NCBI RefSeq assembly: GCF_046105845.1
Contig: NZ_CP151004.1
Origin: Escherichia coli
Lineage (GTDB): Bacteria > Pseudomonadota > Gammaproteobacteria > Enterobacterales > Enterobacteriaceae
Direction: 5' to 3' (one strand)
DNA: 64,000 nucleotides
Positions within the stretch are counted from its first letter, which is position 1; every line of letters starts with the position of its first letter. A model generated the notes under the pieces. That model searched no databases and was not told where the DNA came from. It saw only the letters and a list, made by a program, of their open reading frames with translations. Both the position numbers and the translations under genes were made by a program. Positions 16,513 through 49,280 of the stretch are shown piece after piece.

Positions 16513-17946
16513 CTAATTGTTCTGATAAATATCTTTGTACAAACGGCTTTCAAAACGCACTAACGGAATACGGCGATTACGCTGATCCGCGGGTTCTACT
16601 GCATAGCCGGAAAGATATTGCACAAACGCCATTCGTTGCCCGCTCGCCGTGGTAATGAATCCCGCCAGGTTATATACCCCCTGCAACGAGCCGGTTTTCG
16701 CTGAGACTTTGCCATCCACGCCCGCCTGATGCAGACCTGCACGGTACTGCAAAGAGCCGTCATAGCCCGCCAGCGGCAGCATAGAGATAAAGTTAAGTTC
16801 ATTGTCGTGTTGGGCTATGTATTGCAGCACCTGCATCATGGTGGCGGGGGCAATCAGGTTATGCCGCGAAAGCCCTGAACCATCGGCAATAATGGTGTTA
16901 CCAATATCGACACCGGCTTGCTGGCGCAGGATCTGACGCACGGCGTCCGACCCGGCCCGCCATGTTCCAGGCACATTGAAGCGCGCATGGCCTATCATGC
17001 GGAAAACCGTATCGGCAATCATGTTGTCCGACTTTTTCAGCATAATCTTAAGCAGATCGTGCAGCGGGGCCGACTGTTTACTGGCAACTACCGTTCCAGG
17101 TTCGTTAACCTGCGTCTGACGCAGCAGTGTTCCGCTCCAGGTGATACCTGCCTGTTTTAACTCATCTTTCAGAATTGCTCCGGCATAGCTGGCTCCATCC
17201 TGCACGGCAAAAGCCAACGGGAGCGGCTCAGAACGTTGTGGCAGGCATCCGGTCAGCGTAAAGCGGTTCAGGTCGCCTGGCACCACATCCAGCTCGCAAT
17301 ATTGCGCTTCGGCAGAACCACGGGGGAGGGTGCGTACCTGGCTGAACATCGTAACGGGGTAATAAGATGCCACGCGTATAAAAGCCATATCACCAGGTTT
17401 TGGGGCACTGTAGAGCGAGACGGAGAAACAGTTGCGGTCAACTATGGCGGCAGCAGGCGGAGCGCTAAAGCATTGTGTCATGTCATTCCATGGCCAGCCG
17501 GGGGCTTTATCGTGGCTGGCGAAAATGGAGGTATCTATCAACACATTGCCATCGATTTGGTTGACGCCAGATTTTTTCAAAGTCGCGACCATATTGCGAA
17601 TATCCTGACGTTTTAACGTCGGATCGGCACCAAATCGCGCCACTAAGTCACCCTTAAGTACGCCGTTTTCCACATTACCTTTGGTTTCAAGCGTCGTGGT
17701 AAAACGAAAATCGGGGCCGAGTTGAATCAACGCCGCCAGTGCAGTAATCACTTTCTGCGTACTGGCGGGCAGCGCCATCTGCTGACTGTGGTAATCAATA
17801 GCGGGGGCCGACGCGCCGACTTTTTGCACCATCAGGGCAAGGTTGGCACCAGCGGGGAGTTGAGTAATGTACTCATCAACATTTGCGGCCTGAACACTGA
17901 ACGCTATACAGCTGGTCAATCCGATGATAAATCTGGAAAATCGCAT
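16513..17946 (-). CDS. dacB: D-alanyl-D-alanine carboxypeptidase/endopeptidase PBP4, 477 aa
   Basis: MRFSRFIIGLTSCIAFSVQAANVDEYITQLPAGANLALMVQKVGA; active-site STQK within PASTQKVITALAAL. Confidence 0.95.
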   Translation of the reverse strand: MRFSRFIIGLTSCIAFSVQAANVDEYITQLPAGANLALMVQKVGASAPAIDYHSQQMALPASTQKVITALAALIQLGPDFRFTTTLETKGNVENGVLKGDLVARFGADPTLKRQDIRNMVATLKKSGVNQIDGNVLIDTSIFASHDKAPGWPWNDMTQCFSAPPAAAIVDRNCFSVSLYSAPKPGDMAFIRVASYYPVTMFSQVRTLPRGSAEAQYCELDVVPGDLNRFTLTGCLPQRSEPLPLAFAVQDGASYAGAILKDELKQAGITWSGTLLRQTQVNEPGTVVASKQSAPLHDLLKIMLKKSDNMIADTVFRMIGHARFNVPGTWRAGSDAVRQILRQQAGVDIGNTIIADGSGLSRHNLIAPATMMQVLQYIAQHDNELNFISMLPLAGYDGSLQYRAGLHQAGVDGKVSAKTGSLQGVYNLAGFITTASGQRMAFVQYLSGYAVEPADQRNRRIPLVRFESRLYKDIYQNN

Positions 17947-43809: not shown

Positions 43810-44794
43810 CATCCATCGCCAGTTCAAACGAATGCAGGCGCGCCTGGTGATCGAAAATCTGCCCGTTAACCATAATCTCATCGGCGTCGGTTTCGCGCAG
43901 GATCGACTGCAAGCCATGACGCACTTTCGCTTTATCACCCACCAGCGACATACTCAGCGCCTGCTGCACGCCATACTGCTCGGACGGTGACCAGAACTGA
44001 TCCATATTTTGAATCGGCGGCGGTAGTTGCCCGGTTTCGCCACGGCGCAGCTTCACAAAGGCTTGCTGCATTGAGGTAAAGAGAAATTCAGCGTCGCGGT
44101 TGCTGTCGGCGGCGATAATATTGATGCACACCATCGCATACGGTTTTTCCAGCCGTGCCGACGGTTTGAAGTTGCTGCGATAAAGATGCAGCGCCTGGAA
44201 CAACATATCCGGCGCGAAGTGTGAGGCAAACGCAAACGGCAGACCAAGCTGCGCCGCCAGTTGCGCGCTGTAAAGGCTGGAGCCTAACAACCACACGGGG
44301 ATTTTCTCGCCATAGCCCGGTACCGGGCGCACATGCGGATTGGGATCGCGGGCGTCAAACCAGTCCACCAGCTCCGCGACATCGCGGGGGAAATTATCAA
44401 TATCGCCGCTCATATGACGACGTAGAGCCATCATGGTTCGCTGGTCACTACCCGGAGCACGGCCCAGCCCCAAATCGATTCGCCCCGGATAGAGCGTATT
44501 AAGCGTGCCGAACTGTTCGGCGATCACCAATGGTGAGTGATTAGGCAACATCACGCCGCCAGACCCCAGATGCAGCGTAGTGGTATTCGCCGCCAGATAG
44601 CCAATCAAAACTGATGTTGCAGCACTGGCAATGCCGGTCATATTGTGGTGTTCTGCCAGCCAGTAGCGATGATAGCCGCGCTTTTCAGCCAGACGGGCGA
44701 GCTCGAGAGAGTGGGAGAACGCTTCCCGCGCTGAAGAGCCTTCGGGAATGGGGGCCAGATCGAGTAGCGAAAACGCAATGGTTTTATCAGTCAT
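43787..44794 (-). CDS. yhbW: Luciferase-like (LLM-class) flavin monooxygenase, 335 aa
   Basis: [62 protein letters not shown]. Confidence 0.9.
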
Positions 44795-44874
44795 AACAGC
44801 TCACTTTGTTACCGATTAATCTTTAATACTGCATTAAAGAGTAGTTAAAGTTGTTAACAAAGTGAGCTATTTAC

Positions 44875-45753
44875 TTAGGCTTGCAGCTCCAGCCCAGCCA
44901 GCCGCCGCCAGTAGCCGTTACAGTCGCTGTTTGCCGTCAACGGCAGTGGCGCAGCGCCATTTTCATTGGCGCGGAAGGCGTCGAGCATAGCGAAAGTGTC
45001 AGTCCCCTGCGGTGACAGACGAACCACATCAACCAGTCCCTGCATGGATGCCAGCTCGTTACCGAGGTTGTAAACGTAGCCGCTCATGGTCTGAATGCCG
45101 TTGAGTACAAACACTTGTTGGTTTTCCTGCGACAGCACGTTGCGCCCGTTCGGATACTTAATGCAGCAGGTTTCGCACTCATCTTTCGGGCGGTCTTCCG
45201 AACGCGCGGTAAAGCAGCGGGCGGAGTAGGCCAGCGGCAGATGACCGTAGCTCAGGACTTCCACTTCAAACTGGTTGCGAATGCCCAGCTCATCGCACTG
45301 ATTAAGCAGATTCACCAGCCAGTCGCGGGAAAGCTCCACCGGCATACACCAGCGCATCATGCCCTGTTTGAGCAATATTTTCAGCGTCACCGCGTTGTAG
45401 CAGTTCAGCGCGTGTCCGGCGACGAACGGTAGTTTGCGCTCAGCGCACATATTCACCACGCCGAGATCGCTGGCTTCAATCAGAAACTCACCGTTCTCAA
45501 CATAGCGTTTCAGTTCGCCCAGTTCAGAGGATGCCTGCACCAGCGCCAGCGTGGAGAGCACAATCTGCTTACCACTTCCGGCGAGTGATTTTGCCATCTC
45601 CAGCCAGTCGCCAACTTTGGTTGCCCGGCGCTTGCTGCATACCGCTTCACCAAGATAAATCACGTCGGCGCTGCTGGCGGCGGCCTGCTGATAAAATTCT
45701 TCCAGCGTCTCTTTTGGCCAGTACCACAGCACTGGCCCTAAGGAATATTTCAT
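44875..45753 (-). CDS. ubiV: U32-peptidase-family protein UbiV (YhbV), O2-independent ubiquinone biosynthesis
   Basis: ORF 44875..45771; conserved start MKYSLGPVLWYWPKETLEEFYQQAA at ATG 45751-45753; Cys cluster PKDECETCC. Confidence 0.88.
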   Translation of the reverse strand: MKYSLGPVLWYWPKETLEEFYQQAAASSADVIYLGEAVCSKRRATKVGDWLEMAKSLAGSGKQIVLSTLALVQASSELGELKRYVENGEFLIEASDLGVVNMCAERKLPFVAGHALNCYNAVTLKILLKQGMMRWCMPVELSRDWLVNLLNQCDELGIRNQFEVEVLSYGHLPLAYSARCFTARSEDRPKDECETCCIKYPNGRNVLSQENQQVFVLNGIQTMSGYVYNLGNELASMQGLVDVVRLSPQGTDTFAMLDAFRANENGAAPLPLTANSDCNGYWRRLAGLELQA

Positions 45754-45761
45754 TGCTTTTC

Positions 45762-46757
45762 TCACTGCCATTTACGGTGATACGCGCCAAGGGTGGTCTG
45801 CGTGCCTTCGGACATCGACCCGAGCGTCTCCATCCACGCGCTTTGCGGTATGAAGTTTTGCGGATCGGCCTTACAACGGTCGATAGCCTGACGCCAGACT
45901 TTCGCCACCTGGCTGACATACGCCGGGCTACGCTGGCGGCCTTCAATTTTCACCGAAGCAATATTCGCTGCCATTAACTCCGGCAGCAGTTCCAGGGTAT
46001 TGAGACTGGTGGGTTCTTCCAGCGCGTGATAGCGCTCGCCGTCCACCAGATAACGCCCTTTACACAGCGTCGGATAACCTGCGTTTTCGCCATCCTGATA
46101 ACGGTCGATCAGCACTTCGTTCAGGCGAGATTCCAGCCCCTGCGGCGTTTGCTGCCAGCGCACGAAACGGGCCGGAGAACACGCACCCACAGTGTTGGGC
46201 GACTCACCCGTCAGATACGACGACAGATAGCAACGCCCTTCCGACATAATGCACAGGCTGCCGAAAGCAAACACTTCCAGCGGGACAGGTGTGACCCGTG
46301 CCAGTTGTTTCACCTGATGAATCGACAACACGCGCGGCAGCACCACGCGGGCAACGTCAAAATGGCGATGATAAAAGTTAATCGCCTCTTCATTGGTCGC
46401 CGAAGCCTGCACTGACACATGACGCTCAATATGCGGGTAACGCTCGGCGGCGTACTCCAGCATGGCGAGGTCGGCGAGGATCAGCGCGTCGGCACCCAGC
46501 TGCGCCGCCATATCCACGGCGCGCTGCCAGCGGGCGTAACCGTCCGGGTGCGCAAAAGTGTTAATCGCGATGTGAAGTTTGCGGCGATGTTGATGGACAA
46601 AACTCACCGCTTCCTGCAATTTTTTCTCGGTAAAGTTAAGGCCGGCGAAGTGACGGGCATTGGTATCATCTTTTAGCCCGATATAAACAGCATCTGCGCC
46701 GTTTTCGATGGCCGCCTTAAGCGCCGGGAGATTTCCGGCAGGGCAGAGCAGCTCCAT
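45762..46757 (-). CDS. ubiU: U32-peptidase-family protein UbiU (YhbU)
   Basis: ORF 45762..46784; conserved start MELLCPAGNLPALKAAIENGADAVYIGL at ATG 46755-46757; Cys-rich FGSLCIMSEGRCYLSSYLTGESPNTVGACSPA. Confidence 0.88.
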   Translation of the reverse strand: MELLCPAGNLPALKAAIENGADAVYIGLKDDTNARHFAGLNFTEKKLQEAVSFVHQHRRKLHIAINTFAHPDGYARWQRAVDMAAQLGADALILADLAMLEYAAERYPHIERHVSVQASATNEEAINFYHRHFDVARVVLPRVLSIHQVKQLARVTPVPLEVFAFGSLCIMSEGRCYLSSYLTGESPNTVGACSPARFVRWQQTPQGLESRLNEVLIDRYQDGENAGYPTLCKGRYLVDGERYHALEEPTSLNTLELLPELMAANIASVKIEGRQRSPAYVSQVAKVWRQAIDRCKADPQNFIPQSAWMETLGSMSEGTQTTLGAYHRKWQ

Positions 46758-46965
46758 AATTTTTCCTGAAGGTTGCGCTATCAAAACGCAAAAATGTTAA
46801 CGAACTGGGATTTTAGTTAACCTTGCTGCGACAATTTTTGATTTAAGGCAGTTAAAGTTGTATTGGTGGTAGCAGCAATTTCATATGGAATTGTTGATTT
46901 ATACCGCTATGTTATTTTTCTGATATGGCAAAATAGGATGATTGTTGAAACAGGGAGTAAAACTC

Positions 46966-47490
46966 GTGTTGGATAAACTGCGTTCCCGTATTGTGCATTT
47001 GGGGCCATCTCTGTTGAGTGTACCGGTAAAACTGACGCCATTTGCGCTAAAACGTCAGGTTCTTGAGCAGGTCCTAAGCTGGCAATTCCGTCAGGCGCTG
47101 GATGATGGCGAGCTGGAGTTTCTTGAAGGCCGCTGGTTAAGTATTCATGTGCGTGATATTGACCTGCAATGGTTTACCTCGGTGGTGAATGGCAAACTGG
47201 TCGTTAGCCAGAACGCGCAAGCTGATGTGAGTTTTAGTGCCGACGCCAGCGATCTGCTGATGATTGCGGCGCGTAAACAAGATCCGGATACGCTCTTCTT
47301 CCAGCGTCGGCTGGTGATTGAAGGCGATACGGAGCTGGGGCTGTATGTGAAAAACCTGATGGACGCCATTGAACTGGAGCAAATGCCGAAAGCCTTACGC
47401 ATGATGCTGCTGCAACTGGCGGATTTTGTTGAGGCGGGAATGAAAACCGCGCCTGAAACCAAACAGACATCGGTAGGTGAACCATGCTAA
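46966..47490 (+). CDS. ubiT: SCP2-domain lipid-binding protein UbiT (YhbT), GTG start
   Basis: ORF 46942..47490; conserved N-terminus LDKLRSRIVHLGPSLLSVPVKLTPFALKRQVLEQ from GTG at 46966; divergent from ubiUV. Confidence 0.85.
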   Translation: MLDKLRSRIVHLGPSLLSVPVKLTPFALKRQVLEQVLSWQFRQALDDGELEFLEGRWLSIHVRDIDLQWFTSVVNGKLVVSQNAQADVSFSADASDLLMIAARKQDPDTLFFQRRLVIEGDTELGLYVKNLMDAIELEQMPKALRMMLLQLADFVEAGMKTAPETKQTSVGEPC

Positions 47491-47987
47491 TTCGAGTAGA
47501 AATTCCCATTGATGCGCCGGGTATTGATGCCCTGCTGCGTCGTTCATTCGAAAGTGATGCGGAAGCGAAGCTGGTTCACGATCTGCGTGAAGATGGCTTT
47601 CTGACGTTGGGGCTGGTGGCGACAGATGACGAAGGTCAGGTCATTGGCTATGTGGCATTTAGTCCGGTTGATGTGCAGGGCGAAGACCTGCAATGGGTCG
47701 GCATGGCACCGCTGGCGGTAGATGAAAAATACCGTGGACAGGGGCTGGCACGCCAACTGGTCTATGAAGGACTCGATTCGCTCAATGAGTTCGGCTATGC
47801 CGCAGTGGTGACGCTGGGCGATCCGGCGCTGTACAGTCGTTTCGGCTTTGAACTGGCGGCGCATCACGATCTGCGTTGCCGCTGGCCGGGCACTGAAAGC
47901 GCCTTCCAGGTACATCGTTTAGCGGATGACGCGCTGAACGGCGTAACCGGTCTGGTTGAGTATCACGAGCATTTCAATCGCTTTTAA
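47484..47987 (+). CDS. yhbS: GNAT-family N-acetyltransferase, 167 aa
   Basis: [62 protein letters not shown]; acetyl-CoA motif RGQGLARQL. Confidence 0.88.
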
Positions 47988-48276
47988 TCTCCGGGGGTTG
48001 CAGGCTGCTCAACAGCTCTGCAAACCCTGCGCCTTCCGCTACCAGACGCTCTTTTTGCCGTTTGGTCAGTTGCTTAACGCGATATTCCGCCCGTAGTGCC
48101 AGCGAACGATCGCCCACTGGCGCGGAAAACGCCAGCGTTAGTTCTCCTTTCCCGCGCAGTGCTTTCGCCCCTTTGCCGCTTTGGTGCTGCTGATAGCGGC
48201 GTTCGACATCTGTGGTGATCCCGGTATAAAGCTTATTGTCGGCGGTACGGATCAAGTAAAGAAACCAGGGTGTCAT
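47974..48276 (-). CDS. yhbQ: GIY-YIG domain protein, 100 aa
   Basis: [44 protein letters not shown] (YLIR...LYTGIT...R..H core). Confidence 0.88.
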
Positions 48277-48326
48277 CGTCTGCGTCGCATGTTAAGGTCA
48301 GGCCCACAGTATAAAAGAGAACAGCA

Positions 48327-48749
48327 ATGGAAACACTCACCGCCATCAGCCGTTGGCTGGCAAAACAACATGTTGTCACCTGGTGTGTGCAGCAGGAAGG
48401 GGAACTCTGGTGCGCTAATGCCTTTTATCTTTTTGATGCGCAGAAAGTCGCCTTCTACATTTTGACGGAAGAAAAAACGCGCCACGCGCAGATGAGTGGG
48501 CCGCAGGCGGCAGTTGCCGGAACGGTAAACGGTCAGCCGAAAACGGTAGCGTTAATTCGCGGCGTGCAATTTAAAGGCGAGATCCGCAGGCTTGAAGGTG
48601 AGGAAAGCGACCTCGCACGCAAGGCGTACAACTGTCGCTTTCCGGTTGCCAGAATGCTGTCGGCCCCGGTATGGGAAATCCGGCTCGATGAAATCAAATT
48701 CACCGACAACACGCTGGGCTTTGGTAAAAAAATGATTTGGCTACGTAAC

Positions 48750-48770
<21 letters not shown>
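48327..48770 (+). CDS. yhbP: Pyridoxamine 5'-phosphate oxidase-like FMN-binding protein, 147 aa
   Basis: [55 protein letters not shown]. Confidence 0.85.

Positions 48771-49280
<510 letters not shown>

Follow-up and report, generated by a model that had tools for sequence, protein, structure and literature searches.

The ubiT and ubiU-ubiV genes let facultative anaerobes make ubiquinone without O2, the co-substrate of the aerobic hydroxylases, with FNR as the switch. In canonical class II promoters of the FNR/CRP family the FNR site is centred near −41.5. The closest described system is the ubiT-ubiUV region of Escherichia coli K-12, which was dissected with dRNA-seq starts into three promoters, ubiUVp, ubiTp1 (P1) and ubiTp2 (P2), and two Fnr sites (Arias-Cartin et al. 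2023, mBio 14:e03298-22). One of these sites, F1, lies 36 nt upstream of the ubiUVp start, and the other, F2, lies 33 nt upstream of ubiTp2 and 19 nt downstream of the ubiTp1 start. Fusions of ubiUVp and ubiTp2 were activated by pBAD-fnr and the ubiTp1 fusion was not. Mutation of F1 abolished UbiV and left UbiT unaffected, and mutation or deletion of F2 removed the anaerobic induction of UbiT, with the basal level kept and UbiV unaffected. Further, Flag-UbiT rises approximately 35-fold anaerobically in an Fnr-dependent manner, without effect of an arcA deletion (Luo et al. 2023), and in E. coli, Dickeya and Pectobacterium alike the expression of yhbUV goes up when O2 is limiting. In Pseudomonas aeruginosa an FNR-family sensor, Anr, likewise activates the anaerobic ubiquinone genes (Cao et al. 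2023, Nature 618:358), which in Pseudomonas form a single operon, ubiUVT, in contrast to the divergent pair of E. coli; Vo et al. (2020) contains nothing on Anr regulation, the string "ANR" there being the name of a funding agency.

We analyzed the equivalent region in a stretch of 64,000 nucleotides from an E. coli genome (contig NZ_CP151004.1; hereafter the window). Positions 46758-46965 of the window form a 208-bp spacer between ubiU-ubiV on the minus strand and ubiT on the plus strand, a divergent arrangement for which the gene calls and coordinates of a first-pass annotation, made from the sequence alone, proved correct. The GC content of the spacer is 34%, versus 51% for the whole window, and the neighborhood has the order typical of E. 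coli, namely yhbW-ubiV-ubiU / ubiT-yhbS(hqbA)-yhbQ-yhbP-yhbO. The genes and their translation signals are:

44875-45753, minus strand: ubiV coding sequence, 292 aa, U32 family (open reading frame, Pfam PF01136, name from matching genomes)
UbiV residues C39, C180, C193 and C197: [4Fe-4S] ligands, residues compared with Pelosi 2019
45762-46757, minus strand: ubiU coding sequence, 331 aa, U32 family, ATG at 46757 (open reading frame, Pfam, annotation of matching genomes)
UbiU residues C169, C176, C193 and C232: [4Fe-4S] ligands, residues compared with Pelosi 2019
46764-46768, minus strand: ubiU Shine-Dalgarno sequence CAGGA (a TCCTG block conserved in 51 Enterobacterales spacers; position relative to the ATG from the sequence)
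46954-46958, plus strand: ubiT Shine-Dalgarno sequence GGGAG, a conserved block
46966-47490, plus strand: ubiT coding sequence, 174 aa, SCP2 domain, GTG start at 46966
47484-47987, plus strand: yhbS/hqbA coding sequence, second gene of the ubiT operon, overlapping ubiT by 7 nt (operon according to Luo 2023)

Pfam searches recovered Peptidase_U32 in both minus-strand proteins (E = 1.6e-67 and 1.2e-9) and SCP2 (PF02036) in the plus-strand protein (E = 7.9e-20), and the RefSeq annotation of matching E. coli genomes names the three genes ubiV, ubiU and ubiT. The CETCC cluster that had been noticed in UbiV is present as C193-E-T-C196-C197, in addition to C39 and C180, and the Cys-rich segment of UbiU that had been taken as consistent with Fe-S binding holds the published ligands. 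Thus, the locus encodes the complement of the UbiT/UbiU/UbiV pathway, with two PF01136 proteins bearing four cysteine ligands each and one PF02036 protein. The second gene of the ubiT operon, hqbA, is co-induced with ubiT by FNR (Luo 2023). It codes for a GNAT protein that, according to recent work, modulates how Hfq binds RNA, and is also expressed aerobically, possibly via a promoter within ubiT.

Of 5,426 complete E. coli genomes, 5,424 match a 701-bp query comprising the spacer and its flanks, at genes annotated as ubiU and ubiT. At 208 of 208 positions the spacer agrees with that of E. coli K-12 MG1655, and hence the K-12 experiments are directly applicable to it; the flanks differ from MG1655 at five of the 701 positions (46530, 46548, 47055, 47074 and 47091), all of them in ubiU or ubiT. 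The source strain is not K-12, and among the 10 best E. coli matches listed there is no full identity over the 701 bp, the best reaching 99.6%. With the same F1 and F2 strings, the same three promoters and no differences in the spacer, the region is the same object as that dissected in K-12. Experiments published in 2023 have described it in detail for the identical sequence, and our finding therefore adds nothing new to it. In particular, the view of the first-pass annotation that this is an oxygen-responsive divergent control region of an anaerobic ubiquinone module agrees with what has been published for the identical sequence, and the anaerobic induction is documented in the literature as FNR-dependent.

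The elements that serve ubiU-ubiV are as follows:

46838-46851, no strand assigned: F1, TTGATTTAAGGCAG, probable class II activator site of ubiUVp, an exact match to the published F1
46801-46802, minus strand: approximate ubiUVp start, by arithmetic from the published 36 nt between F1 and the dRNA-seq start
46810-46815, minus strand: putative ubiUVp −10 hexamer TAAAAT, within the conserved block GGGATTTTAGTTAACC

To score FNR sites we used a symmetric position weight matrix (PWM) built from 30 ChIP-chip motifs in the table of Grainger et al., with yhbT/yhbU left out. F1 attains 14.6 bits, which places it first among 63,977 window positions and above the 75th percentile of the leave-one-out training scores, and it is a clear computational FNR call. 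Hence, the FNR scan of 46758-46965 that the first-pass annotation had recommended does return a site above threshold, and the top score of the 64-kb window at that. Plain counting of matches to the consensus (TTGATNNNNATCAA) gives F1 and F2 7/10 each, which is not above chance, and a search allowing at most two mismatches to the FNR consensus yielded 37 matches in the window versus 32 expected, with none in the spacer; mismatch counting was thus too crude and was replaced by the PWM. Occupancy data point to the same place: the motif given for yhbT/yhbU in the FNR ChIP-chip study (Grainger et al.), TTTAACTGCCTTAAATCAAAAATT, is 46833-46856 in reverse complement, and the yhbUV peak of FNR ChIP-seq at 3,299,421 (older K-12 numbering) converts to window position 46844, the centre of F1.

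From the published distance the centre of F1 falls at −42.5 or −43.5, slightly off the canonical −41.5. The conserved −10 at 46810-46815 fits with this, and a site centred approximately 42 bp upstream of the ubiUV start suggests that FNR acts there as a class II activator. The locus resembles canonical class II FNR promoters in combining 1) a perfect TTGAT half with a weaker half that keeps a critical G/C, 2) overlap with the −35 region, 3) a recognisable −10 and 4) absolute dependence on FNR. Unlike them, it has two promoters back to back, with site centres 56 bp apart, and the strong half-sites of F1 and F2 share one orientation, being promoter-proximal for ubiUV and promoter-distal for ubiT. 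A generic sigma-70 scan reported one weak minus-strand match by the ubiU start codon, at the level of shuffled sequence, and missed the real promoters. The GGCAG...TTG stretch downstream of F1 was considered by eye as a sigma-54 promoter and rejected, as its GG-to-GC spacing is off by one and the GC is absent in E. coli. Two GTTAAC words (46796-46801 and 46816-46821) lie 20 bp from each other on either side of the ubiUVp −10 and start, in the layout GGTTAAC-TAAAAT-CCCAGTTC-GTTAACA; both words are highly conserved in Enterobacteriaceae, and their spacing is unlike that of ArcA sites.

On the ubiT side the spacer contains:

46894-46907, no strand assigned: F2, TTGATTTATACCGC, activator site of ubiTp2, an exact match to the published F2, with published mutagenesis
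46926-46934, plus strand: putative ubiTp2 extended −10, TGG CAAAAT, in the near-invariant block T(G/A)TGGCAAAATAG, 6-7 nt upstream of the published P2 start
46940-46941, plus strand: approximate ubiTp2 start, by arithmetic from the published 33 nt between F2 and the P2 start
46838-46866, plus strand: proposed ubiTp1 core, with a −35-like TTGATT at 46838-46843, a 17-bp spacer and a −10-like TATTGG at 46861-46866 as putative hexamers

The published P2 distance puts the centre of F2 at −39.5 or −40.5, again not quite the canonical −41.5. The start of ubiTp1, taken from its published position 19 nt upstream of F2, comes to approximately 46874-5; the promoter scan did not report the hexamers proposed for it. 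We infer the exact −10 and −35 assignments and the overlap of F1 with the P1 −35, and likewise a direct contact of FNR with F2.

Taken together, the spacer almost certainly comprises two FNR-activated promoters placed back to back and one FNR-independent promoter. Without oxygen, [4Fe-4S] FNR binds F1 and switches on the otherwise silent ubiU-ubiV, probably in the class II manner, and FNR at F2, a site whose centre precedes the P2 start by some 40 bp, would raise the expression of ubiT-hqbA. P1, with its start at about 46874-5, is FNR-independent and supplies basal aerobic UbiT. The TTGATT of F1 would double as the P1 −35, so that FNR sitting on F1 would overlap this element, with F2 some 26 bp beyond the P1 start, a layout that hints at a change of promoter from P1 to P2 when oxygen is absent. 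As UbiT was unchanged in the published F1 mutant, any effect of such a switch should be small. Experiments by others have established the occupancy by FNR, the dependence on FNR, the loss of induction upon mutation of each site and the independence of the two sites. To these our analysis joins the identity with K-12, the strong PWM site at F1 and the footprints of both sites and both −10 elements across Enterobacterales.

For the comparison across species we scanned GTDB genomes for a pattern of UbiU N-terminus codons, which gave 120 loci, none of them from Salmonella, Klebsiella, E. fergusonii or Shigella; ubiT and ubiU are adjacent and divergent in 79 of these. A MAFFT alignment of 51 Enterobacterales spacers showed discrete conserved blocks in otherwise unalignable DNA, namely: 1) the ubiU Shine-Dalgarno sequence; 2) GGGATTTTAGTTAACC, with the ubiUVp −10; 3) TTTTGATTTAAGGCAG, corresponding to F1; 4) G-TATTGRT at 46860-46867; 5) TTGTTGATnTA..CCGC, corresponding to F2; 6) T(G/A)TGGCAAAATAG, the extended −10 of P2; and 7) the ubiT Shine-Dalgarno sequence. 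In about 50 Enterobacterales species the alignment thus footprints F1, F2 and both −10 elements, which shows that this arrangement of two sites is ancient and under tight constraint. Across the 51 spacers, 13 of the 14 positions of F1 are conserved, its non-consensus right half GGCAG included, and the site is near-invariant in about 70 species. Vibrio (TTGATATAAGGCAG), Moritella (TTGATTTAGGGCAG) and Shewanella (TTGATnTAAAACAG) have versions of it, and in Salinivibrio a perfect TTGATATGTATCAA stands 67.5 nt from the ubiU ATG, approximately the F1-type position in Vibrio, Pantoea and Shewanella.

In Enterobacterales, Vibrio and Moritella the right half of F1 (46847-46851) is GGCAG with hardly any variation; Shewanella has AACAG instead. 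FNR binding by itself would not obviously fix GGCAG, and tuning of affinity or a second constraint on these positions is possible. The distance between ubiT and ubiU is approximately 2.4 kb in many genomes of Vibrio and Photobacterium and in one Plesiomonas MAG (nine loci), and hence the shared spacer is not universal. Where Enterobacterales have F2, about 66.5 nt ahead of ubiT, four Shewanella loci carry TTTGTGATCATAAA-like words, and these look closer to the CRP half-site (TGTGA) than to the FNR half-site.

Beyond the literature consulted go only the invariant weak half of F1 and a candidate lead that Escherichia has lost, a PdhR-type palindrome in its relatives. What the window retains of the latter is:

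46862-46867, no strand assigned: ATTGGT, left half of the PdhR-type palindrome; Escherichia has lost the right half by deletion

In many Enterobacteriaceae the conserved TATTGRT block forms the left arm of this palindrome. Its centre lies 24.5 bp from that of F1, and it sits over the proposed P1 −10 and start (window positions 46860-46879). Three of four Citrobacter genomes have TATTGGTG(A/T)CACCAATA, which matches ATTGGT-N3-ACCAAT at 12/12 positions, and the fourth matches at 11/12. Nine further Enterobacteriaceae spacers reach 10-11/12, some of them as symmetric variants such as ATTGAT...ATCAAT; in shuffled spacers at least 10/12 occurred in 1.25% of trials and at least 11/12 in 0.06%. The published PdhR box is AATTGGTnnnACCAATT, known at pdhR, cyoA, ndh and grcA (Anzai et al. 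2020), and the three Citrobacter boxes agree with it at 12/14 consensus positions, with a perfect GGT-N3-ACC core, whereas the E. coli window has TATTGGTGGTAGCAGCA, with 9/14 matches and only the left half.

Could a second regulator then act on these promoters beside FNR? One reading retains FNR as the main switch and adds to it YbcM in E. coli and, in other Enterobacteriaceae, a PdhR-type repressor of the GntR family over ubiT P1; we hold this to be possible and on the whole doubtful. For the PdhR part, a PWM derived from 28 PdhR gSELEX sites (median of the known sites 14.3 bits) gives the perfect Citrobacter boxes 13.5 bits, about that median, and the palindrome is intact there and seldom equalled by shuffles; most boxes outside Citrobacter, however, score 3-10 bits, below the lower quartile of the known sites, and the E. 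coli remnant scores 4.6 bits. A PdhR operator with an intact GGT-N3-ACC core is absent from the window spacer, and the alignment does not extend beyond the left arm in any of the 5,419 E. coli genomes with a match. The E. coli PdhR gSELEX targets include no yhbT/yhbU entry, which is what loss of the operator would predict. For the YbcM part, the ChIP-exo site assigned to ubiT has a signal-to-noise of 470, the highest of 12 YbcM sites (Gao et al. 2021), and converts to 47013-47027, with the coordinate offset checked against the FNR peak; this coordinate nevertheless falls inside ubiT and hinges on the conversion between genome versions. YbcM belongs to the AraC family, and its peak is within the first 60 nt of ubiT.

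E. coli and E. albertii, in which a deletion of about 11 bp has left only the left arm, have a spacer of 208 bp versus approximately 220 bp in the relatives, and an F1-F2 distance of 56 versus approximately 65-67 bp. From such sequence comparisons one might propose that an ancestral enterobacteriaceal operator of PdhR type (GntR/FadR family) lay over the −10 and start of P1, and that this deletion, about one helical turn and fixed in E. coli and E. albertii, removed its right half, a scenario that we consider rather unlikely. If it were true, UbiT would have been tied to pyruvate sensing, as ndh and cyo are, and the deletion would have made P1 constitutive and moved F1 and F2 from about 65-67 to 56 bp apart. 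The best match of the PdhR PWM in the window, TAATGGTGTTACCAATA (16890-16906, 16.1 bits), is inside a 477-aa open reading frame, which we take to be dacB, and is probably a chance match.

A weaker alternative to activation of P2 by FNR bound at F2 holds that F2 is not a direct FNR site, that the mutations disrupt either a different part of the P2 promoter or a site bound by some other factor, and that ubiT depends on FNR indirectly or by way of F1. The PWM score of F2 would allow for this, since at 2.0 bits (rank 553) it is at background level, below the lower training quartile of 7.7, and two sites with no lower scores occur in 45% of 208-bp segments of the window. F2 matches in its TTGAT half and in A10 and C12 of the second half, so that its right half, ACCGC, has only 2/5 matches to ATCAA. 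ChIP is unable to resolve sites 56 bp apart, genome-scale studies do not list ubiT as an FNR target, and in its accessible part the published work on this spacer reports no in-vitro binding of FNR to F2. A weak YciT ChIP-exo site (4.1; Gao et al. 2021), converting to 46872-46901, between P1 and F2, offers another candidate factor. Against this alternative, the fusion containing P2 alone responded to pBAD-fnr, UbiT was indifferent to the F1 mutation, and an F2 point mutant and an F2 deletion both abolished induction (Arias-Cartin 2023). Further, the TTGAT of F2 is invariant: in about 45 Enterobacterales species it stands exactly 33 nt upstream of the −10 block GGCAAAAT, and position 12, in the weak half, keeps its key C. 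We accordingly regard an indirect route as very improbable. The case for FNR at F2 rests on published mutagenesis and genetics together with conservation and not on its PWM score. This cautions that counting mismatches or matching a consensus by eye misses functional FNR sites which a PWM (F1) or conservation (F2) detects, and F2 would have been wrongly discarded had a score above threshold been required. Several other YciT sites (dmsA, yjjI and zwf) are at or near genes with reported FNR peaks.

ArcA-regulated promoters have at least two direct repeats of TGTTA type, 11 bp apart from centre to centre. A role of ArcA in the redox control of the spacer, alone or with FNR, is scarcely credible: TGTTAA-like words do occur at 46795-46800 and 46815-46820, and the spacer contains two matches to the 11-bp-spaced repeat pattern, both with three mismatches and none better, but the pattern is at chance in the window (62 matches versus 51.6 expected), the good GTTAAC words are 20 bp apart, neither 11 nor 22, and UbiT induction is unchanged by deletion of arcA (Luo 2023). 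The ArcA scan that the first-pass annotation had coupled to that for FNR gave no site above chance.

The FNR candidate that the first-pass annotation had put forward as the closest, TTGCGCTATCAAAA, or ttgcgctatcaaaa at 46773-46786, is not an FNR-type site, and the real sites F1 and F2 had been missed; its interpretation is thus supported in substance, with the named site wrong. Read as TTGCG..ATCAA, TTGCGCTATCAAAA has half-sites 2 nt apart where FNR needs 4, its FNR PWM score is −2.4 bits (rank 2691), and ttgcgctatcaaaa has 5/10 matches to TTGAT-N4-ATCAA, under the scan cut-off of at least 6/10. The candidate occupies approximately +16 to +29 of the ubiUV transcript, on the downstream side of its start, and makes up an arm and the loop of a predicted hairpin:

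46773-46791, minus strand: stem-loop in the ubiUV 5'UTR, 7 bp with a 5-nt loop, TTGCGTT/AGCGCAA, containing ttgcgctatcaaaa

The predicted fold has −7.3 kcal/mol, and the z-score of the whole E. coli UTR is weak (−0.86). A hairpin is predicted at the same place, with differing stem sequences, in 23 of 25 Enterobacteriaceae, with z-scores of −0.6 to −4.2 for the individual sequences. RNAalifold found no consensus pairs in 23 ubiU 5'UTRs, because the stems vary in length and register, and folding of the individual sequences supports only a hairpin conserved in position. An Rfam 15 search of 44000-49000 in E-value mode gave two sub-threshold matches, both far under the gathering scores. The ubiU 5'UTR of P. 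aeruginosa likewise has a stem-loop; this one blocks the ribosome-binding site unless opened by the sRNA SicX (Cao et al. 2023). The E. coli hairpin, in contrast, ends 5 nt before the Shine-Dalgarno sequence and would leave it uncovered. We know of no sRNA partner for the E. coli ubiUV hairpin. In the ubiUV transcript it begins at about +12, and Pseudocitrobacter has lost it through a deletion.
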